A stretch of 64,000 nt of DNA from Armatimonadota bacterium (GTDB taxonomy: Bacteria; Armatimonadota; HRBIN16). A model generated the notes under the pieces. That model was not told where the DNA came from. It saw only the letters and a list, made by a program, of their open reading frames with translations, and ran no database searches. The DNA lies in assembly GCA_963677485.1 (NCBI GenBank), contig OY781964.1:2816001-2880000 (forward strand). The letters are read 5' to 3'. The position numbers were made by a program, and so were the translations under genes. Positions 34,992-53,770 of this stretch are shown here, one piece after another. Numbering within the stretch: position 1 is the stretch's first letter; each line of letters opens with the position of its first letter.

Positions 34992-35216
34992 GGGTGGGAT
35001 ATGGCGTGCCGTGCCCACCATGATCATCGGACGGATCTGACGGATCGGTCCGATTAAACGTACTAGGGGCGGTTCGCGAACCGCCCTTGGGCGTGGGGAC
35101 CACGCCCCTATGATCGAATAAACGGTTGTGGGGCGGTAGGGGCGGGGTCACCTCGCCCAAAAAACATCGTTCGGCTGGGTTACCCCGCCCCAGGGCATGG
35201 CACGCCATGCCCCTAC
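34992..35216. repeat. REP cluster between convergent genes
   Basis: ATCGGACGGATCTGACGGATCGGTCCGAT; AGGGGCGGTTCGCGAACCGCCC (35065-35086); GTAGGGGCGGGGTCACCTCGCCC (35136-35158); GGGCATGGCACGCCATGCCCCTAC (35193-35216). Confidence 0.85.
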
Positions 35217-44292: not shown

Positions 44293-47157
44293 TCAGATTG
44301 ATGTTCCGCTGTGCTGAGACCGTCCCAGCAGCCTCTTCAGATACCGGCCCGTGTGGCTGGCCTCGCAGGCGGCGACCTGCTCAGGCGTGCCCTCTACCAC
44401 CACGGAACCGCCATCGCGGCCGCCCTCAGGGCCCATGTCGATTATCCAGTCTGCGCACTTGATGACGTCCAGATTGTGCTCAATAATGAGCACACTGTTA
44501 CCGGTATCGACCAGCCGCTGCAGAACGCCCAGCAGCTTCTCGATGTCCGCGAAGTGAAGGCCGGTGGTGGGCTCATCCAAAATGTAGATGGTGCGCCCGG
44601 TGGCGCGCCGGCTGAGCTCGGTCGAGAGCTTCACGCGCTGCGCCTCTCCGCCAGAGAGCTGCGTGGCGGGCTGTCCCAGCCGGACGTAATCCAGACCAAC
44701 ATCGTGGATTGTCTGCAGCCTGCGATATATCCTGGGCACCGCTTTGAAAAACTCCAAAGCCTCCGACACCGTCATCTCCAGCACCTGGGCGATGGATTTA
44801 CCCTTGAACTTCACTTCCAGTGTCTCACGGTTATAACGCTGGCCTTTGCATACCTCGCAGGGCACATACACATCGGGCATGAACTGCATCTCGATTTTGA
44901 TGATGCCGTCACCCTTGCACGCCTCACACCGGCCGCCCTTCACATTGAAGCTGAATCGCCCGGATGTGTAACCGCGCATCTTGGCATCCTGCGTCTCGGA
45001 AAAGAGGGTTCGGATGTGGTCAAACACACCGGTGTAGGTGGCCGGGTTCGAGCGTGGCGTTCGTCCGATGGGGGACTGGTCGATATCCACCACCTTGTCC
45101 AGATACTCCATGCCCTCCACGCCGTCATGCAGCCCCCAGCGGGGATGGGCGTTGTGGATGTGGTGCTGCAGCCTTGGGTATAGGGTTTCCTGCACCAGGG
45201 TGGACTTGCCGGAGCCGGACACGCCGGTCACGCAGGTTAGCACACCCAGCGGGAAGTTGACCGTGATGTTCTTTAGATTATTCTGCCGGGCTCCCTTGAT
45301 GGTGACCATCCGGCCATCGCATTGCCGGCGCTCTGACGGCACCGCGATGCGGCGCGTTCCGCTGAGAAACTGGCCGGTGATGCTCAGCGGATCGTCCACA
45401 ATATGCTGAGGGATGCCTTCGGAGACTATCATGCCGCCGTGCTCCCCGGCACCAGGGCCGACGTCAATCAGCCAGTCGGCGGCCATCATCGTCTCTTCAT
45501 CATGCTCCACTACGATAATCGTGTTGCCGATGTCGCGAAGGTGGGTGAGTGTTTTGATGAGCTGCCCATTATCGCGCTGATGCAGTCCGATGCTGGGTTC
45601 GTCAAGGATATACAGCACGCCCATCAGTCCCGAGCCAATCTGCGAAGCCAGTCGGATGCGCTGCGCCTCACCGCCGGCGAGTGTGCCGGCAGAGCGGTCC
45701 AGCGTGAGGTAGCTCAAGCCCACATTCTTCAGGAAGCTCAGCCGGTTGTGTATCTCTTTGATCAACTGCCGGGCGATAGTGTTCTGGCGATCGGTCAGTT
45801 TAGGCGTGAGTTGAGAGAAGAAGTCGACGGCTTCCTCGACGCTCATGCACACGATCTCGCTGATGTTGTGCTCATCAATGTGGACCGCCAGGAACTCGTC
45901 CTTCAGCCTCTTGCCCTGGCACTTCACGCAAGGCTTTGCCGAGAGATAGCGGTTGAGTGCCTCTTTGATGCGGTCACTGTCGGTTTCGTCCAGGTGACGC
46001 TGCAGGATGGTGCAGACACCTTCCCAATGGGTATCGAAATAGTGAGTGCGCCCCCAGCGGTTCTTCACGCTGACCGAGACGTGGTCGGGCATACCCCTCA
46101 TGATGATGGCCTGGTGCTCGGGCGATAGCTCCTCGTATGGGGTTTTGATGGAAAAGCCGTGCTGCTTTGCCACGGTGCTCAATACGCGTTCGTAGTTGCC
46201 TTGAAGTTCGCCTTTGGCATTGGTCAGTGCTTCGATGGCACCATTGGCGATGCTCAGCTTGGGATTCGGTACGATCAGGTCGGGGTCAAACTCGAAGTGA
46301 AAGCCCAGTCCCGCGCAATCGGGACAGGCACCGAAGGGGCTGTTAAACGAAAAACTGCGGGGTTCGATTTCCGGCAGGCTGATGCCGCAGTCCGCGCAGG
46401 CGAATTTGTCGCTGAAGATGCGTTCGCCCTGCTCCATCAGATCGGCGATGACGCTGCCCTGCGCGATGCGCATGGCCGTCTCCACCGAGTCGGACAGCCG
46501 GCGCTCAATGCCCTCCTTGACCACCAAACGGTCCAGCACCAGGTCGATATTGTGCGCTTTATACCTGTCGAGTGCGGGGATATCATCGGTGGTGAGGTCT
46601 ACCAGCTCACCATCGATCCGCAGGCGGGTGTAGCCGTTGCGTCGGGCTTCCTCAATCTCCTTGCGGTATTCGCCCTTGCGTCCTTTGATCAGGGGGGCGA
46701 GTATCTGCATACGGGTGCCGACGGGCAGCGCGCTGAGGGTATCCGTGATCTGCTCCACCGTTTGTGCGGCGATCACCTTACCGCACTGGGGGCAGTGCGG
46801 GGTGCCGATGCGGGCATACAGAAGCCGCAGGTAGTCGTATATCTCGGTGACCGTGGCCACCGTGGAGCGCGGGTTACGGTTGGTGGACTTCTGGTCGATA
46901 CTCACCGCAGGGGAGAGGCCAATGATATCATCCACGTCCGGCTTATCCATCTGCCCCAGGAACATGCGGGCGTAAGAGCTGAGGCTTTCCATGTAGCGGC
47001 GCTGACCCTCCGCGTAGATGGTGTCAAACGCCAGGCTGGACTTGCCGGAGCCGGAGAGTCCTGTGATGACCACCAGCTTATCGCGCGGTATCTTAACGTC
47101 GATATTTTTCAGGTTATGTTGGCGTGCTCCACGCACCTCGATGAATTCTTGCGGCAT
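44293..47157 (-). CDS. uvrA: Excinuclease ABC subunit A
   Basis: GARQHNLKN, two Walker A motifs ([16 protein letters not shown]), Zn fingers, LSGGEAQR; 954 aa. Confidence 0.98.
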
Positions 47158-47235: not shown

Positions 47236-47786
47236 CTCACGCGAAGACGCGAAGGCGCGAAGGGTGGTACGGTATGCGGGTCAGCTTGGCCATGTCCTAC
47301 TCGTCCACCTCATCCTACCCGTCCTGTGGGGTTCATTTTAACCGCGAATGAACGCGAATGAACGCGAATGGGAACTGGAGCGTTGCGCATAGACGCGAAG
47401 GGGACGGAGAATCGCGATTGCCTATGTCCGGGGCGGTCTTTCAGAGGGATTGCGGCTGCAGATGGCAATAGACCGCGCCGGTCTTGATTCAGGGCGACAA
47501 TCTGTTGTCCCAGAAGGCTCCCAACGCAACGGCGCAAGGGACGGCGAACCGTAGGGGCAGGCCCCCGTGCCTGCCCTGTTTCGGCAGGTGGCAAACCGTA
47601 GGGGCATGGCGTGCCGTGCCCAAACGTCGCCGTGCCCAAACCCCACCATGTGCACACGAAAATGCGGGAACGCCATGGGGGCACGGCACGCCATGCCCCT
47701 ACGTGCGCGTCGTCGTCACCCCGCCCCAGGGCGCGGAAACCGCGCCCCTACACGTCGATTCCAGGCGGTCGGGAAACCCGCCCCCT
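47236..47786. repeat. Large mixed repeat array with five GTAG REPs, ending at the IS110 insertion site
   Basis: Short-period modules 47236-47370; CCGGGGCGGTCT...AGACCGCGCCGG 47428-81; REPs at 47551-76, 47598-621, 47679-702, 47729-51 and 47764-86. Confidence 0.88.
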
Positions 47787-47799
47787 AGTACGCTATATA

Positions 47800-47999
47800 T
47801 GGTGAGCTCCCCGGACACCAAAAGCAGTCGGGGAGCTAATCTCACCCCTTAGCTGGGGGTGAAGGAGAAGGATTGGATGCCGGAACCGCCCCTGGTGGAA
47901 AACACCGTGACGTAGATAGGCATCCTTCTCCCAATCAACCCATATCGAACAGTATCTTGGGAGAAAACCCCGTGTTCGCTAGGCTGATTTGGTTGATTG
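47800..47999 (+). ncRNA. IS110 bridge RNA
   Basis: 5' hairpin(s), then a target loop closed by GGATGCC/GGCATCC with ACCGCCCCT and ACGTAG, then a donor loop closed by CAATCAACC/GGTTGATTG with ACAGTATCT and GCTAG. Ends approximate. Confidence 0.85.
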
Positions 48000-48032
48000 C
48001 ACCATCAATCACTACCAACTGGAGATTACCAC

Positions 48033-49325
48033 ATGCACGAAGTTGAAGACAAAATCTACATCCATTATGTCGGGATCGACATCTCGAAATTGACGTTTGA
48101 CGCGTCTGTATTAGGTTCATCGCACAAGCCGATAGACCATAAGGAGTTCAAGAACAACAAGGCCGGATACAAGGAGTTGTTGTCATGGGTGAAGAAGCTT
48201 ACCCGAACTCCCGCCTTGTATGCGGCTGAAGCCACCGGGCCTTACAGCCGACCGCTGCTTGATTACCTCTACGAGCACCAGCACGATGCTGTCCAACTGG
48301 AGCCAAAACGGGTTCTCTATCACCGCAAAGCCAAAGGCTGGGAACAAAAGACGGACTGCTCTGACAGCGTGCTAATCGCTGACTATGTGAAAAGTCACAA
48401 TGTCTCACTCTATGTCCCTCGTCTAGCATGCTATGATGCGCTTATTGGTTACACCAATGACCGCCGTATGCTGGTGCAACACAGACAGGCGATCGCCCAG
48501 CGCCAAAGCTGTCGGCTTACGCGGAGCACAGTGCTGGACGAGATGATCGCTTTTCATGACATGGGCATCAAAAAGCTTGATGTTCAGATCAAAGAGCTTG
48601 TGATGAGTTCACCGCAGATGACCGAAGATATGGCTCTGCTGAAGAGCATTCCGGGTATCGGCGACGTCACAGCAAGCTATTTCCTTGCGAAAATCGGTGA
48701 TGCTAAACGATTTGAAACATCGAAAGCGGTCGCGCGCTATTTCGGAATGAACCCCTGCCCGCAACGGTCAGGAAGCTGCAAGACATACGACGGCTCCATA
48801 TCCAAGATGGGTGACCGATATATGCGGACATTACTCTACTGTGGATCGAGCACTGTGGTGAAGATGGTCAACGGTAAGTCGAAAAAGCTTGGCCAGAGCA
48901 TGCACGACTTCGTGAAGGAACTGCAGCATCCGAATTTGGTAAAGAATCCCAATAAGAAACCGAAGTCCAAGCGAGTTGTCCGGTGCGCAATCATGCGCAA
49001 GCAGCTGGTGCTCATGTGGTCGGTATTAATCAGCCGTCAGCCATATGATCCAAACTTCGGCATCGAACAAGCTTCAAATGCGGCCAACCAGCAACCGCTG
49101 ACCGACGCGAACGGACATGTCCAGGATCGTGCCGGAGCGGCCCATGATATAGCCGGTGTAGGCAATGATCCTGGGCTGGACGTGAGCGTTCCAAGACGGG
49201 GATGCGTGGATGGAAATCCCACCAATGAGCCCACTCCTGCCGGCGGTGGTCGGCCCGCATCCCGAAACCGGCCATCGCGCAGTCGGGTGGGCAACAAACC
49301 GAGGGTTCTGACACCAGTATCCTAG
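48033..49325 (+). CDS. IS110 family DEDD recombinase/transposase with C-terminal extension
   Basis: GIDISK, EATG, KTDCSDS (DEDD), SIPGIG, QRSG (catalytic Ser), ISKMG; GGAGA RBS before ATG 48033. Confidence 0.95.
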   Translation: MHEVEDKIYIHYVGIDISKLTFDASVLGSSHKPIDHKEFKNNKAGYKELLSWVKKLTRTPALYAAEATGPYSRPLLDYLYEHQHDAVQLEPKRVLYHRKAKGWEQKTDCSDSVLIADYVKSHNVSLYVPRLACYDALIGYTNDRRMLVQHRQAIAQRQSCRLTRSTVLDEMIAFHDMGIKKLDVQIKELVMSSPQMTEDMALLKSIPGIGDVTASYFLAKIGDAKRFETSKAVARYFGMNPCPQRSGSCKTYDGSISKMGDRYMRTLLYCGSSTVVKMVNGKSKKLGQSMHDFVKELQHPNLVKNPNKKPKSKRVVRCAIMRKQLVLMWSVLISRQPYDPNFGIEQASNAANQQPLTDANGHVQDRAGAAHDIAGVGNDPGLDVSVPRRGCVDGNPTNEPTPAGGGRPASRNRPSRSRVGNKPRVLTPVS

Positions 49326-49596
49326 CTGCGGCAGTCTGCCGATAGCACGCATCGAAGCATAACGATATCTTTCGAAGCCACGAAGATGTCGCACGTCCGT
49401 TCGCGACTCCGAGCGTCATGTGAGGTGCTACGGACCAACTGATGCCATCTGAGCCTGTTTCTGTCGCGGATCCAGGTTTGGTCTATATGCCACAAACATC
49501 ACATTAACGTTATTCTACGTGGTCTAGAGCCAGTGTCTGATATTCAGGTCCAAATCCCCAGATTTGCCCCTGGGGACTTGACAAAAGCCACAGTAT

Positions 49597-52500
49597 CTAC
49601 TCCAGCACGGCGAAGTGGACGCCGCCCTGGTGGGCGCTGCTGTCCAGCTTGCCCAGAGGCAGGCGGGGGGTGTCTTCTTCGCTAAGCACGGCGCTGACGC
49701 CGCTCAGGCTGACGCCCTGCTCAGGCACCAGCTTGATGACTAGCCCCTCCAGCGGATACTGCGCACGCAGCGTGAAGCGCAACTGCTTCTGACCGGCCGG
49801 TATAGGCAGCACGGTACTCAGACCGGGCAATACCGACCCATCGTGCAGCACCTGCACGCGTACATGACTGTCATGTGCGGCGGAGGCCACACCGGTGAGC
49901 TCCACCTGCGTGCCGCTGTCCAGCCGAGGCAGCGGGCCCACGGTGTTCAGTTTGACAACCTGTGGCTTCACAAGGATACGGGCATGGAACGGTGTGACAT
50001 ACACATCACCAGTCCACTCGCCGGCCTCATTTACGGCTTTAATCAAGCCGGTCCGTTTACCGGTGCCGATACCTGCCAGCGCGATGGGCTTGCCCTGCTT
50101 GTGGTAGATTTGGATTTCGCCCACGCCGCCGGTCACGCCGGGACGCGGCTTATCGCTCTCCAGCATCAGCTTCCGGATCGCCTCGTCCATCGTCTTGTTG
50201 AAGCCCTCATCGTATTCCTTCGGCCACTGCATACAGTGGACGGAGTAAACGCCGTGCTCCCACATATACTTCAGTTGCTTGTAGGCATCGTCCGCGTTGG
50301 GGGTGAGTGCTTGATACTCGCCGATGCTGATCATGTTCTGACCGGCCCGCCAGGCGTCCTGCAGCGCCTCGTGTTGCTTGTTGTACCACACGCCGTATCG
50401 GGTGAAGCCGTAAGCGGCCCCGGTGTTCAGCGCCCAGTCGATGGGGGTGATGCGCGAGGTGACGTTGCTGAATGCGCTCAGGTTGCCGATGGCGTAGGTA
50501 TCGGGAATCTGGTGTGTGCAGAGCAGCTCGGGCGGGAAGCCTGCCGCCAGTGCATTCGCCAGCGTCTGCGCGATGAAGCGGTTGACCACCGTGCGGTTGA
50601 AGTTCACCCAACTAGCGAACATCGGGTTGGTCTTTTCGTAGGCGTCCCAGGCACCGCGGTCGTTCTGCCGGGGGGCATCAAACAGATTGGAGACGGGCGC
50701 ACCCAGCTTCTTCGCGCTGGTAGTGAGCTGGTCGCCCTCCGTCTGGCGCAGATAGTCGGCGAAGTTCTGAATGTTCAGCGGGTTGTAATCGCCGTAGGTG
50801 CCGTCCGCTTCGACTGCGATTTCGTGTTCGTGGTTGGGCTCCAGCATGGCGATGTGCTCGGGGGTCTTTCGCCAATTGGTGAACAACGCCCTCAGGAAAG
50901 CCTGGTTGGGCCGATGGTAGAAGCCATCGAGGATCGGCGATCCCGTGGCGTAGGTGCTGCTGAAGAAGTCCACCGTGTCGAACTCGCCGTACAACGCCAT
51001 CTTGTTGGTGCGAGTCAGCATCGCATACGCGGGCAGTTTGGACTGAGGGTCGATGGCCTCCATCAGTTTCGGGGCCGCATGGCGTGACTGCCGGTGGGTG
51101 TAGCACGGCTCCCATTGCCCCACTATCGATGTGGCGTAGCTGTCGATCCGGCTCTTGCTGGGCACATCGTCCAGCGTGCTGAAGTCGCCAGCCAGTATTT
51201 TGTCCAGATTGCTGTATTGAGAGCCATCGGTGCGCAAATGCAGGAACTCGGAGAACTTGATGTATTTCCCATCCTGCAGCGGGTTGCCGAATGGCCAATA
51301 CCACTGGATGTAGAAGTTGTTCTCACGCTTGCCCAAATCCATCGAGGTGATCTCGTTGGCCGGGCTGAGTTTGAAGGCGATGCTCTGTAAGGGGTCGTTA
51401 CCGCTGGCCCAGAGGCTGCCGTCCTCGAACGCGCTGGGGTTCAATCGCAGCTCACGTAGTGGCTCCGGCAGGCTGATGCGCTCCACAGCTGCTGTGACTG
51501 GGTTGATCTTGCTGGCCGCATCCGCCCCTTTGTGCTGGCAGATCAGGCCGTCGCTGCTCTGGCCCGGGTTCAGGGTCAGCCAGACCGTGCTGCTGGTATC
51601 GGCCGCGGGCACCGCTCCAAGAAGCGTCTTGACAGGTCGGCCGAGTTCATCGATGATACAAACCGGTGAGCTGGCATCGTATACGCTGCCGGTGATGGCG
51701 ATCTGATCGGCTTTCGAATTAGGATCAAACCGGCCGGTGACCACGGCATATGGCGGTTTCACGGCTGCCGGCGGGGTGATCTCGCGGATCAACAGCCCAT
51801 CCTGGGTATACAGCCGCAGGTTGCGGACAGTGGCGTTGCTGGCGGGTGCGGTAAGTATCGCCACGATACCCGACTGTGTTTGCAGGCGGCGCACCGTGAC
51901 ACCACCCGTAACAGTGGCCGGATAGGCCAGGAACTGCGCCACGGGCATGGAGAACTCGTTGAGCACCCGCACCACCGTGTGGTTGTCCGGGTCGCTGCCC
52001 TCGCCGGCCACGATGACCGGTGCCTGACCTTTAGCCTGAGGTACGGTCTTCGCCAACGCCGATAGCTCCAGAGTGGGGTCCAGCAGACCCACGGCACTGG
52101 CGCCTTCATCGCTGATGGACACAGATATGCGTTCGGGCAGTTTCCTCTGCTGCAGGTTCTTGACCTGTAGTTGGGGGATATTCAAAAATTCCAAAGGTGA
52201 TGGCCTCCCTTTGATGATCAGTTGGGGTTGGCCCCACACTGCCCAGTCCAACGCGCTGTTCTTCTGCGGGTCAGTCAACAGGCTGATCGTCACCGTCTTG
52301 CCCGCATAGGCTTTCAGGTCGACTTTGAAGGGCACCCATTTCTGCTGGTTGTTTGATAATGCCAATGCGGTGGTTCCATTGATCTTGATGATGAACTTCA
52401 CGCCATCAAACAAATTCTCCACCGACGGTTTGAAGCCTTCACGGATACCCACCCAACCGGTGAGCACGAGTTTCTCTTTCGCTTTGATGGTCGGCAGCTT

Positions 52501-52746
52501 GATACCGGTGAAGTCCACTTGCACCAGCGGCTTATCGGCGGCGGCCGGGTGCTGCGAAATCACCGGGCGGGCGATGCCCTGAATGGTGCCCACGTCGGTG
52601 GATGCTTTGTTGGGGTTCTTGGTGGTTGGGCTTGTGAGCGCGTCGGTCAGACGCAGCAGGGTGGTGTCTGGCCTGGTGAGCGGCGCACACAATCCGCTGA
52701 CAGAAAGCATACAGGCCATCATTGCCGCACCGAAATGAAGTCGCAT
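49597..52746 (-). CDS. Large secreted protein, probable glycoside hydrolase (TIM-barrel-like) with accessory beta domains
   Basis: Signal peptide MRLHFGAAMMACMLSVSGLCA with GGAGGAG RBS; PNHEHE, GDYNP...FADYL, THQIP, IGEY motifs. Family uncertain. Confidence 0.65.
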   Translation of the reverse strand: MRLHFGAAMMACMLSVSGLCAPLTRPDTTLLRLTDALTSPTTKNPNKASTDVGTIQGIARPVISQHPAAADKPLVQVDFTGIKLPTIKAKEKLVLTGWVGIREGFKPSVENLFDGVKFIIKINGTTALALSNNQQKWVPFKVDLKAYAGKTVTISLLTDPQKNSALDWAVWGQPQLIIKGRPSPLEFLNIPQLQVKNLQQRKLPERISVSISDEGASAVGLLDPTLELSALAKTVPQAKGQAPVIVAGEGSDPDNHTVVRVLNEFSMPVAQFLAYPATVTGGVTVRRLQTQSGIVAILTAPASNATVRNLRLYTQDGLLIREITPPAAVKPPYAVVTGRFDPNSKADQIAITGSVYDASSPVCIIDELGRPVKTLLGAVPAADTSSTVWLTLNPGQSSDGLICQHKGADAASKINPVTAAVERISLPEPLRELRLNPSAFEDGSLWASGNDPLQSIAFKLSPANEITSMDLGKRENNFYIQWYWPFGNPLQDGKYIKFSEFLHLRTDGSQYSNLDKILAGDFSTLDDVPSKSRIDSYATSIVGQWEPCYTHRQSRHAAPKLMEAIDPQSKLPAYAMLTRTNKMALYGEFDTVDFFSSTYATGSPILDGFYHRPNQAFLRALFTNWRKTPEHIAMLEPNHEHEIAVEADGTYGDYNPLNIQNFADYLRQTEGDQLTTSAKKLGAPVSNLFDAPRQNDRGAWDAYEKTNPMFASWVNFNRTVVNRFIAQTLANALAAGFPPELLCTHQIPDTYAIGNLSAFSNVTSRITPIDWALNTGAAYGFTRYGVWYNKQHEALQDAWRAGQNMISIGEYQALTPNADDAYKQLKYMWEHGVYSVHCMQWPKEYDEGFNKTMDEAIRKLMLESDKPRPGVTGGVGEIQIYHKQGKPIALAGIGTGKRTGLIKAVNEAGEWTGDVYVTPFHARILVKPQVVKLNTVGPLPRLDSGTQVELTGVASAAHDSHVRVQVLHDGSVLPGLSTVLPIPAGQKQLRFTLRAQYPLEGLVIKLVPEQGVSLSGVSAVLSEEDTPRLPLGKLDSSAHQGGVHFAVLE

Positions 52747-52849
52747 GGTTGGTTCTCCTCCGGATATTCGTATGTGTCTATTATTAAAGCACAATTTGGG
52801 GGAGGAGTGGAGAAGGAAGGAGCAGAGGAGAGGAGGAGAACGGGACAGG

Positions 52850-53770
52850 TACCCAACGCAAAGGCGCAAGGGTGCAATGGCGCAATGTGATGTCCTACTC
52901 GTCCTACTCGTCCTGCCCGTCTTGTAGAGGTGCATTTTAACCACGGATGAACACGAATGAACGCGAATGCATCTTGCCTAAGTCCGGGGCGGTCTGTGCG
53001 CAGGCTAGCGGTTGTGGAAGGCTCGAGACCGCGCCGGTCTGGCGGTTAGCCTACCGGTTTGTTCCTTAACGTTAATATGGTCACCCGAGAGGAATGCACA
53101 ACCTTAAAGGCGCATAGTGATGCCCACTCGTCCTACCCGTCTTATTAGGGGGCCATTTTTACCACGGATGAACACGAATGAACGCGAATGGGTCTTGCCT
53201 AAGTCCGGGGCGGTCTGTGCGCAGGCTAGCGGTTGTGGAAGGCTCGAGACCGCGCCGGTCTGGCGGTGAGCCTTCCGGTTTGTTCCTTAACGGTAATATG
53301 GTCGCCCGAAGGGAACGCACAACGCAAAGGCACAAGGGTGCAATGGCGCAAAGTGATGTCCTACTCGTCCTACCCGTCTTATAAGGGGCCTATTATAACC
53401 ACGAATGAACACGAATGAACGCGAATTGGTCTTGCCTAAGTCCGGGGCGGTCTGTGCGCAGGTTAGCGGTTGCGGAAGGCTCGAGACCGCGCCGGTCTGG
53501 CGGTTAGCCTTCCAGTTTGTTCCTTAACGGTAATATGGTCGCCTGGAATAAATACACGACGCAAAAGCGCAAGGGTGCAAAGGCGCAACGTGTTGTCTCA
53601 CTCGTCCTACTCGTCCTACAAGGGGCCTATTATAACCACGAATGAACACGAATGAACGCGAATGGGTGTATTCCAACGCAATGGCGCAATAAAACGCCTG
53701 ACGCGTACTAGGAGCGGTTCGCGAACCGCCCTTCTCGCGTCGCTGGTTAGCCATGTCCTACTCGTCCTAC
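52850..53770. repeat. About 3.5 tandem copies of a 221-237 bp composite repeat
   Basis: ACCACG(G/A)ATGAACACGAATGAACGCGAAT recurs at ~52940, 53161, 53398 and 53635; the three full units carry CCGGGGCGGTCT...AGACCGCGCCGG. Confidence 0.9.

Follow-up and report, generated by a model that had tools for sequence, protein, structure and literature searches.

The IS110 element in this stretch of DNA, referred to here as element A, raises the question whether an insertion sequence of this family carries its own guide RNA, from which its targets and the ends that it joins can be read. All coordinates refer to the window, the whole stretch of 64,000 nt that was analyzed (forward strand of contig OY781964.1, GCA_963677485.1, positions 2,816,001 to 2,880,000), in which element A occupies positions 47787-49598. 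We assume with a probability of about 0.9 that it is a recently active IS110-group insertion sequence working like IS621. A complete element with readable guides had been proposed from the sequence of this locus before, and protein domains, RNA fold, the flanks of 12 copies and covariation in sister elements now bear out this original prediction, all of whose named motifs were found in place by direct reading. Its interpretation holds because copies, flanks, occupancy and sister guides fit.

Anatomy of element A

The element is 1,812 bp long and bordered by CT on both sides (Table 1). Terminal inverted repeats are absent from its ends (AGTACGC... and ...ACAGTAT). The left end (246 nt) does not exceed the right end (273 nt) in length, whereas in the IS110 group the left non-coding end is usually the longer one; this holds statistically for the group and is no requirement. 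In the left flank, a repeat search found the inverted repeat GGGCGCGG/CCGCGCCC at 47729-47747, and the second palindrome has the left target of this copy, CCGCCCC (47778-47784), as its 3' foot. On the other side, the plus-strand CTA at 49597-49599 represents the TAG stop of a 1,115-aa open reading frame on the minus strand. The neighbouring gene is unaltered because CT-A of the empty site would yield the same stop, and the expected overlap without breakage was thus confirmed.

Table 1. Features of element A and its immediate flanks in window coordinates.
Feature	Position	Strand	Basis
Left flank, two REP-like palindromes	47723..47784	+	read from sequence
CT core, left copy	47785..47786	+	CT 5' of element in 12/12 copies
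Left end, 246 nt, non-coding, predicted bridge-RNA source	47787..48032	+	fold, consensus structure
Right donor (RD) AGTACGC, opening bases of element	47787..47793	+	sequence; sister element: TGTATGC
TACGCT, putative -10 half of junction promoter	47790..47795	+	forms only on joining of ends
5' stem-loop, predicted bridge RNA	47805..47837	+	single fold and consensus fold
Target-binding loop (stem, internal loop, inner hairpin)	47864..47931	+	single and consensus fold
Left target guide GAACCGCCCCU	47883..47893	+	core 9-mer ACCGCCCCT at 47885-47893
Right target guide ACGUAG, complement of CT-ACGU	47910..47915	+	CT-AC flank in 11/12 copies
Candidate handshake guide AU, target loop	47916..47917	+	sequence reading only
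Donor-binding loop (stem, internal loop, inner hairpin)	47932..47999	+	single and consensus fold
Left donor guide ACAGUAUCU	47949..47957	+	DNA ACAGTATCT; 9/9 identical to 49590-49598
Candidate right donor guide (G)CUAG, then candidate handshake GC	47978..47984	+	CUAG complementary to CT-AG, left junction
Recombinase gene, 430 aa	48033..49325	+	ATG 48033; GGAG 48021-48024
C-terminal extension, about 90-100 aa	49059..49322	+	absent from IS621-size relatives
Right end, 273 nt, non-coding	49326..49598	+	blocks conserved with sister element
TTGACA, putative -35 half of junction promoter	49578..49583	+	invariant in sister elements
Left donor (LD) ACAGTAT	49590..49596	+	sequence; identical to IS621 left donor
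CT core, right copy	49597..49598	+	12/12 copies
Right target ACTC	49599..49602	+	bases 1-2 fit right target guide
TAG stop, neighbouring 1,115-aa ORF (49597..52944)	49597..49599	-	right CT and first flank base

The recombinase

Two domains were identified in the 430-aa recombinase, PF01548 (DEDD, RuvC-like; E = 1.8e-21, 77 bits at a cut-off of 29, residues 13-158) and PF02371 (Tnp; E = 4.4e-22, 78.7 bits at a cut-off of 21.3). The best solved relatives are IS621 (8wt6, E = 2.5e-28), which aligns across residues 10-274, and ISCro4 (9t56, E = 5e-26), which aligns across residues 10-277. The alignment with IS621 contains the acidic motif rows GIDxxK, EATG and KTDxxD as well as the serine of the SGS motif, with RSGS of the recombinase placed on ESGS of IS621. 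Judged from these alignment rows, the motif residues would be the equivalents of D11, E60, D102, D105 and S241 of IS621 (residues named in PMC11208158). The start codon agrees with the N-termini of relatives. Element A is therefore a member of the IS110 group of the IS110 family.

Coverage of the query is 92-100% in only seven protein clusters and 34-80% in the others listed, and beyond this small clade the identity of relatives does not exceed about 30%. The C-terminal tail has 17 invariant columns in the alignment of relatives, and the structure model gives a pLDDT below 35 for residues 342-430.

A predicted bridge RNA with readable guides

The 246-nt left end folds at -88 kcal/mol (z = -3.45; none of 200 shuffles was equally stable) into a hairpin on the 5' side and two stem-loops with internal loops. 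A consensus structure of five sequences, sister elements included, has 81 pairs, 14 of them with compensatory changes. Compensatory pairs were found in the 5' stem-loop (alignment columns 15/57, 21/51, 25/47 and 27/45) and in the target loop (80/148, 88/140, 111/122 and 112/121). A search of Rfam 15 with positions 47400-49900 gave no match at E <= 1; it is possible that the family is missing there or that the RNA is too divergent.

In this fold, each of two successive internal loops has one of the guide 9-mers on its 5' side and a complementary motif on its 3' side. As a chance control, 20,000 mononucleotide shuffles of the left end were searched: the left-target 9-mer occurred in 24, the left-donor 9-mer in 23 and both together in none. 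Compared with the flanks of the 12 copies, the left target guide matches at 9/9 positions (11/11 with GA) at six sites and at 8/9 positions at five more, and in 6/12 copies the left flank together with CT corresponds exactly to GAACCGCCCCU. The right target guide ACGUAG pairs with CT-AC at 11 of the 12 sites; its third position (G) fits four, and the extended right-target positions are unmatched by natural sites. As predicted, the left donor guide is identical to the right end of the element at all nine positions. In addition, AT at positions 6-7 of the left donor is a possible partner of the AU behind the right target guide, and of GC at 47983-47984 only the G would be able to pair with target position 7; both are readings of the sequence.

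When the two ends are joined in silico, TTGACA and TACGCT are separated by a spacer of 17 nt, exactly the arrangement that had been anticipated. TACGCT matches TATAAT at only 3/6 positions, and TTGACA/TATGCT are found in the same layout in sister element B. By analogy with IS621, we infer that these motifs may constitute a promoter rebuilt across the joined ends. Fold and guide matches support the view that the left end encodes an IS621-type bridge RNA whose guides are probably readable from the sequence.

Covariation in sister elements

Element B is present in nine copies in a congeneric genome and in two copies, one of them interrupted, in the host genome of element A. The sister elements have 42-45% protein identity to element A and share its C-terminal extension, the RNA architecture, the left donor ACAGTAT, the right target guide ACGUAG and TTGACA, and their ends measure 250 nt (left) and 342-376 nt (right). 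The variable block in the alignment is the left target guide, which reads GUCAUCC, CGCGCCC, GUGGCCC or CGUGCCC depending on the lineage. In the congeneric genome, the guide of element B is GGUCAUCCCU and the flank is GTCATCC-CT in six of nine copies, GTCGTCC in two and GCCATCC in one. Element B targets repeat families other than those of element A. The copy B' in the genome of element A combines the guide CGCGCCCCU with the flank CGCGCCC-CT, and two metagenome loci match at 8/9 positions, L042 with GUGGCCCCU and GTTGCCC-CT and L043 with CGUGCCCCU and CATGCCC-CT.

The donor side changes as well. Element B has the right donor TGTATGC, as in IS621, whereas that of element A is AGTACGC, and the right donor guide goes from CAAG to CUAG as the left end goes from CT-TG to CT-AG, a compensating change. 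The complementarity predicted between GCTAG and the left end CTAG(T) stood for CUAG, which pairs with CT-AG, but the next pair is a G.T wobble, and for this reason only the core and two further positions are firmly matched on the right-donor side. One could argue that GCUAG does not read the right donor at all and that the left end is recognized through protein contacts or through discontiguous pairing at other places in the loop; the donor loop would then be only half readable. The short match of element A points in this direction when set against the 7 nt that pair in element B (AUACAAG with CT-TGTAT), as does the discontiguous RDG-RD pairing described for IS621 in section 7 of PMC11208160. 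On the other hand, the +1 position covaries (U faces A in element A and A faces T in element B), and in IS621 only the two RD positions next to the core are treated as programmable (PMC11208160, PMC11208158). We regard this alternative as unlikely, albeit a serious one, and favor GCUAG as the reader. Across these relatives, a small sample of five guide variants of which four are closely related B-type, the guides thus appear to covary with targets and donors, and the natural variants suggest that element A would be programmable.

Target sites and occupancy

The flank analysis of other copies, which had been suggested as a check, revealed CT on both sides in 12/12 copies and one site type throughout. 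All 12 copies are preceded by ...GCCC-CT at the foot of a palindromic repeat, in line with the predicted REP foot of the host. The left targets are ACCGCCC (six copies), ATCGCCC (three), AACGCCC, CCCGCCC and CCGCCCC (one each), AC forms the right flank of 11 copies and AT that of one, and the palindrome GGGCGnTTCGCGAAnCGCCC adjoins 10 of the 12 insertions. The natural target is GAACCGCCC-CT-AC, i.e. (GA)ACCGCCC-CT-AC. Of the predicted target ACCGCCC-CT-ACGT, the part up to AC is therefore used and the GT extension is not: G follows AC in 4/12 copies, and the full 13-mer does not occur in the genome.

The occupancy of N7-CT-AC sites falls steeply with mismatches to the left guide, from 6/9 at none to 5/149 at one, 0/584 at two and 1/1,986 at three. 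The difference between perfect and one-mismatch sites is significant (Fisher test, p = 1.8e-6), where one occupied one-mismatch site has AT and empty sites were counted with AC only. Element A is specific and not mismatch-tolerant, in contrast to what had been concluded from the window copy. This copy is the single three-mismatch case and the worst-matched of the 12; its site CCGCCCC-CT-ACTC is imperfect, as noted originally: aligned with the left target guide, it has three mismatches when no gap is allowed, or one mismatch if a 1-nt bulge is admitted. Not every insertion is explained by pairing alone, and recognition of a hairpin may contribute because 10/12 insertions adjoin one palindrome family.

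Taken further, the recombinase could mainly recognize the DNA hairpin of the repeat, which would make the RNA-flank match secondary or a by-product. That these ten insertions share the 3' foot of a single perfect palindrome family would fit, and element B likewise sits at a hairpin foot. The window copy would fit as well, which has only 4/7 left-target matches and yet adjoins another hairpin-like sequence. Furthermore, the target stem-loop of ISPpu10 is reported as an added layer of specificity in the description given in 10.64898/2026.03.19.712850. However, within one palindrome family a difference at a single guide position tracks occupancy, as most AACCGCCC sites are filled, compared with 3/25 of the ATCGCCC sites (3 occupied, 22 empty). 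In addition, the guide fits its own flank in each of five lineages, and about 89 copies of another repeat with CGCCC-CT-AC are free of insertions. This makes targeting mainly by the hairpin very improbable; some extra specificity may well come from the hairpin, but not as a substitute for pairing by the guide.

Copies in the genome and proposed mechanism

Ten of the 12 copies are 1,812 bp and two are 1,796 bp long. Five are identical and the others differ by 1-2 SNPs, plus one 16-bp deletion common to two copies. The bridge-RNA region is free of SNPs in all 12 copies, and ten have kept the intact 430-aa frame. The deletion (48471-48486) shifts the frame, and its two carriers lie at separate sites. 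This is most simply explained if a defective copy was mobilized in trans by the recombinase of another copy. Relatives with about 94-95% identity and the same flank type are found in metagenome contigs. That the copies are fossils of an immobile element, multiplied through segmental duplication or by homologous recombination, agrees with the finding that neither a circle nor an empty-site polymorphism was seen in assembled contigs of public runs, data in which circle junctions and RNA ends would not show, but it is hardly credible in view of flanks that differ outside the short repeat in all 12 copies, the few SNPs, the ten intact frames, the filling of perfect sites and the metagenome relatives. 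Element A is a recently active insertion sequence.

Its circle formation, junction transcription, RNA binding and recombination chemistry we infer from IS621. Excision would give a circle in which a single CT joins the right end to the left end. The circle junction would bring TTGACA and TACGCT together as a promoter for a bridge RNA of ~200 nt and then the recombinase gene. The recombinase, in which a RuvC-like DEDD domain is combined with a Tnp domain that contains the catalytic serine, would bind this RNA, whose donor loop would pair with the circle junction ACAGTAT-CT-AG and whose target loop would pair with (GA)ACCGCCC-CT-AC, the 3' foot of the palindromic repeat. Strand exchange at CT would then insert the element.

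Comparison with known bridge-recombinase systems

The likeness to IS621 extends from the PF01548 and PF02371 domains with their catalytic motifs to a left end predicted to encode a bridge RNA with 5' hairpin, target loop and donor loop, the architecture described in section 6 of PMC11208160 (5' hairpin and two internal-loop stem-loops). Both elements use a CT core and an identical left donor: the ACAGTAT that the original prediction had given for IS621 is correct, as its left and right donor are given as ACAGTAT.CT.TGTAT in 10.64898/2026.08.31.748434. The wild-type target of IS621, ATCAGGCCTAC, is an 11-mer ending in CT-AC (PMC11208160, PMC11208158); in both elements the target ends with CT-AC at a repeat foot, and the minimal right-target pattern is equal. 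The AU after the right target guide resembles A81/U82 of IS621 (PMC11208158), and the promoter is split over both ends, which for element A describes the layout of its motifs. The elements differ in the left target (ATCAGGC in IS621 versus ACCGCCC in element A) and in the right donor (TGTAT versus AGTAC). Proteins of IS621 size have 326-341 aa as compared with 430 aa in element A, which is due to the conserved C-terminal extension. A search for DNA similarity of element A to E. coli genomes found none. ISCro4 (9t56), the second-best solved relative, has the same motif rows and is as distant as IS621, as judged from the protein.

With regard to targeting, element A is similar to ISPpu10 and ISPpu9 of Pseudomonas putida, which are described as REP-targeting IS110 elements with a fixed place in repetitive palindromes (10.64898/2026.03.19.712850, PMC12288879). 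According to these accounts, both form circles and have a bridge RNA upstream of the transposase gene, and the left target of ISPpu10 is one arm of a stem-loop (10.64898/2026.03.19.712850). Compared by description, their cores (AG in ISPpu9) and ends differ from those of element A. The mechanism of bridge recombinases is already well described, and element A is a further instance, with readable labels for its ends and targets.

Structure of element A and its predicted bridge RNA

The original prediction had described element A, the IS110-group insertion sequence of this window, as a complete bridge-recombinase system whose guides can be read from the DNA. Direct reading of the sequence located all motifs that it named; the observation is confirmed, and its interpretation is supported, with corrections, by the guide/flank fit, the fold and the copies. 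When the left end was shuffled 20,000 times as a chance control, the left-target 9-mer arose in 24/20,000 and the left-donor 9-mer in 23/20,000 shuffles, and both together in 0/20,000. The 246-nt left end has a predicted fold of -88 kcal/mol (z = -3.45) with one hairpin at the 5' end, another small one, and two stem-loops whose internal loops are large; in these loops the same-sense 9-mers are predicted to lie on the 5' sides and the complementary motifs on the 3' sides. An Rfam scan of 47400-49900 gave no match at E <= 1.

As had been proposed for the circular form, joining the ends brings TTGACA (49578-49583) to a computed distance of 17 nt from TACGCT (47790-47795). For the integrated copy, a promoter and terminator scan returned one promoter-like and one terminator-like site on the minus strand, neither in excess of what chance would give; the promoter-like site is oriented antisense to the recombinase gene. 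The window copy is flanked by CCGCCCC on the left and ACTC on the right, as read directly. The right CT core and the first flank base form the TAG stop of the neighboring open reading frame, and the empty site would yield the same stop, in agreement with the earlier claim that the insertion leaves this gene unbroken. The neighboring frame encodes 1,115 aa and matches no Pfam family.

Features of element A, related copies and junction-like sites (positions refer to the window unless the genome contig C1 is named)
Feature	Position	Strand	Remark
Left target guide ACCGCCCCT	47885-47893	+	direct reading
Right target guide ACGTAG	47910-47915	+	direct reading
Left donor guide ACAGTATCT	47949-47957	+	recurs at right end 49590-49598
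Candidate right donor guide GCTAG	47978-47982	+	direct reading
CT core copies bounding element A	47785-47786 and 49597-49598	+	direct reading
Recombinase ORF	48033-49325		430 aa
Deletion found in two copies	48471-48486		16 bp, frame-breaking
C-terminal extension, ~90-100 aa	49059-49322	+	residues about 343-430; among the clusters listed, the seven closest only
Right end, 273 nt	49326-49598	+	unusually long for the IS110 group
Promoter-like CAGACA-16-TAGAAT	49512-49539	-	inside right end; 9/12 matches; 1 found vs 1.1 expected
Neighboring ORF	49597..52944	-	1,115 aa
Solo sites in the window	35059-35067 and 53704-53712	-
Solo sites on C1	near 264921, 1990839, 2010708	+
Solo sites on C1, four in all on this strand		-
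Deleted copy, locus L011	C1:1369196-1370991
Deleted copy, locus L012	C1:1871159-1872954
B-type copy, locus L038	C1:1296591-1298380
B-type copy, loci L015/L013/L041	C1:2667672-2671720

The recombinase contains PF01548 and PF02371, and the best-matching solved structures are those of IS621 (8wt6, E = 2.5e-28) and ISCro4 (9t56, E = 5e-26). Acidic motifs and an SGS serine are present in the alignment rows with these relatives and, in our own reading of the alignment, probably correspond to the catalytic residues named in PMC11208158. G, P, R and N are frequent in the C-terminal extension, which has 17 invariant columns across 8 relatives. The structure model has a mean pLDDT of 59.9, with values < 35 for residues 342-430, and is therefore uninformative on the extension. 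In the sister element the right end is even longer (342-376 nt; L018:2701-3044), and several blocks are conserved between the two, including a hairpin immediately before TTGACA.

Genomic copies and target specificity

The genome is a single contig of 5.22 Mb with 54.4% G+C and carries 12 copies of element A. Five are identical, five differ by 1-2 SNPs, all outside the RNA region, and the remaining two share a 16-bp frame-breaking deletion at different sites. The simplest reading of this common deletion suggests that a defective copy moved in trans with the recombinase of another copy. In public runs, which were examined as assembled contigs, two isolate runs, which may stem from the source itself, contained element A as a separate 1,820-nt contig with a depth of 117-154 compared to roughly 6-15 in the flanks, which is in keeping with many copies. 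Relatives with about 5-6% differences were found in one digester metagenome and one biofilm RNA library. The contig from the latter comprises the repeat foot, the left end and the gene start, and runs leftward into ...GGGCGGTTCGCGAACCG; we do not take it as a sign of transcription. Among the matches listed from these runs, none joined 49598 to 47787, a result that carries no information on circles, as their junction is not expected to appear in assembled contigs.

All 12 copies are preceded by ...GCCC-CT and followed by AC (11/12) or AT (1/12), and 10/12 sit at the foot of the palindrome GGGCGnTTCGCGAAnCGCCC. The seven bases before CT are ACCGCCC in six copies, ATCGCCC in three, and AACGCCC, CCCGCCC and CCGCCCC in one each, the last being the window's copy. 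The perfect target according to the left guide is GAACCGCCC-CT-AC; at the six sites that fit best, agreement with the RNA reaches 11 nt (GAACCGCCCCT), and the bases past AC vary among the right flanks, with G next in 4/12. The 13-mer target originally predicted, ACCGCCCCTACGT, has 0 occurrences in the genome. The flanks of the 12 copies together with the absence of this 13-mer indicate that the natural target is an 11-mer.

To the left of the window copy, at least three families of GC-rich palindromic repeats cluster at 47500-47785, between uvrA (44293-47157, minus strand) and element A, and all of them carry a GCCCCTAC(G) foot; CGCCCCTA occurs 310 times genome-wide. The three Y1 transposase genes of the genome are not flanked by the GTAG-foot repeats, so that a link of these repeats to a REP-associated transposase was not established.

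An occupancy census of all genomic N7-CT-AC sites, scored against the left target guide, showed 6 of 9 sites occupied at 0 mismatches, 5 of 149 at one, 0 of 584 at two and 1 of 1,986 at three. The difference between perfect and one-mismatch sites is significant (Fisher test, p = 1.8e-6); among the five occupied one-mismatch sites a single one carries AT in place of AC, and the empty sites were tallied with AC alone. No insertion was found in an abundant repeat family with CGCCC-CT-AC (~89 copies). The mismatch tolerance proposed for the element thus has to be withdrawn, as the genomic record is that of a specific element, with near-saturated perfect sites and a steep drop in occupancy at one mismatch.

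Related elements and covariation of guides and flanks

Among the matches listed, close protein relatives form seven clusters (41-95% identity, 400-433 aa, 92-100% query coverage), including P0001-P0005 with 61-95% identity; the remaining matches reach at most about 34% identity at 34-80% coverage. A protein search of plasmids gave nothing above about 30% identity, the contig scan of genomes produced 26 pattern matches with 0 confirmed, and the metagenome scan for DNA loci retrieved B-type (sister-element) relatives and distant ones only. Of 401 genomes sampled from the phylum, two gave matches at E <= 1e-50, namely this genome and a single congener, and an order-level sample of 18 genomes gave the same two and no others. 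The clade of element A is very small; its C-terminal extension is conserved and its right end long. A 43%-identical recombinase gene on the metagenome contig L045 (match 1047-1712) has no bridge-RNA-like left end upstream; ~35 nt before the start codon alone are conserved.

The sister element B is present in nine copies in the congener (42% protein identity to element A), and two B-type copies occur in this genome, one of them interrupted. In the second of these, the bridge-RNA region and the 3' part of the recombinase gene are ~2.5 kb apart. The left donor ACAGTAT is common to element A and both B-type copies in this genome. Element B ends with ...TTGACAAAGTGCACAGTATCT on the right, starts with CT-TGTATGCT on the left, and occupies the foot of GGATGACCACAAGGGTCATCC-CT, followed by ACG in 8/9 copies. 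At the left target guide position its RNA has GGUCAUCCCU compared to GAACCGCCCCU in element A, and at the right donor guide position AUACAAG compared to CGCUAG. In three further B-type lineages each guide fits its own flank: B', a copy in this genome (guide CGCGCCCCU, flank CGCGCCC-CT), and the metagenome loci L042 (GUGGCCCCU, GTTGCCC-CT) and L043 (CGUGCCCCU, CATGCCC-CT). The 6-7 variable columns of the RNA alignment are exactly the non-core left target guide, with invariant sequence on both sides, and the consensus fold with the sister elements keeps every helix, with 14 of 81 pairs compensatory. This covariation of guide and flank is the strongest evidence obtainable here for the predicted loops as guides and, judged from sequence comparison, what we see is natural retargeting among repeat families inside one genus.

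The B-type RNAs (L018:1338-1352 and corresponding positions in L038, L042 and L043) carry UGUA directly after the left target guide. This loop strand matches the left junction after insertion (flank-CT-TGTA) over 13-14 nt, beyond the target alone; the RNA of element A has no such extension. The stem of the inner hairpin may produce this match by chance.

Junction-like sites without an element

Element A begins with AGT-ACGC, and its left junction therefore resembles a version of the element's target that is 3 bp wider. The genome contains the 9-mer CTAGTACGC 20 times: at the 12 left junctions of element A, at six element-free repeat feet and at two places elsewhere. The repeat foot followed by CT-AGTACGC is thus found without an element at six sites (solo sites), and a seventh foot has AGTACG only. 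B-type analogues at repeat feet in this genome are CT-TGT-ACG (two), CT-TGTATGC (three) and CT-TGTATG (one). The congener, in which a DNA search found no element A, has eight solo sites (L077-L084), seven of them at feet of several repeat families. A difference of exactly 3 bp separates the two genomes at two orthologous sites, with ...CCC-TAG-TACGC... in the congener and ...CCC-TACGC... in this genome. Orthologues of the two window solo sites could not be established in the congeneric genomes, as the intergenic repeats are too rearranged, and two apparent cases of synteny were undone by the same rearrangement.

A tentative reading, to which we give a probability of roughly 0.3, is that solo sites are scars left when bridge recombinases excised an element imprecisely or in a shifted register. 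Such scars could arise by a crossover in the TACGC that both the left end and the right junction contain, or if GT at positions +2/+3 were taken as a false core. Some solo sites match the guide poorly, however, which speaks against the simple version. It is also possible that the sites are a variant of the repeat foot that bears no relation to the element. Copying of a repeat along with a few element bases would be a further possible origin, but the solo sites are spread over several repeat families. If excision scars are indeed the explanation, past IS110 occupancy would remain readable at the repeat feet, and excision in nature would at times be unclean, a point that bears on scarless editing with bridge recombinases. 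The accessible parts of the literature found on IS110, footprint, excision and REP do not describe such scars.

Comparison with known systems

Taken as a whole, the analysis supports the view that element A would work like IS621, and the testable features of the family are found with some exceptions. A DNA search of E. coli genomes with element A and the left end of its sister gave no match, so that the RNA comparison with IS621 rests on published descriptions. The predicted loop layout is that of the IS621 RNA in sections 6 and 7 of PMC11208160. The two bases past each core complement take the position of the IS621 handshake guides as described in PMC11208158; the candidate handshake AU could pair with donor positions 6-7, and of GC the G alone could pair, with target position 7. 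The natural 11-mer target has the same form as the IS621 wild-type ATCAGGCCTAC, and the donor arms of element B equal those of IS621 given in the Methods section of preprint 10.64898/2026.08.31.748434. According to section 5 of PMC13626964, integrated copies of IS621 undergo excision and read-through expression at a low level.

Element A differs from IS621 in the left target, in the right donor (AGTAC compared to TGTAT), in the C-terminal extension of its clade, which IS621 lacks, and in the host lineage; its right end is as long as the left, whereas the IS110 group tends otherwise. By inserting at the foot of a hairpin in its target, element A resembles ISPpu10 (10.64898/2026.03.19.712850). 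Element A is a new member of the family, and the known mechanism is unchanged by our findings. Bridge recombinases are under development for programmable DNA insertion, excision and inversion, with divergent natural orthologues as raw material. Element A is of value as a candidate orthologue that is well documented and can serve to test specificity; its natural record is unusually clear and includes 12 near-identical copies, a defective copy apparently moved in trans and retargeted sisters in the same genus.
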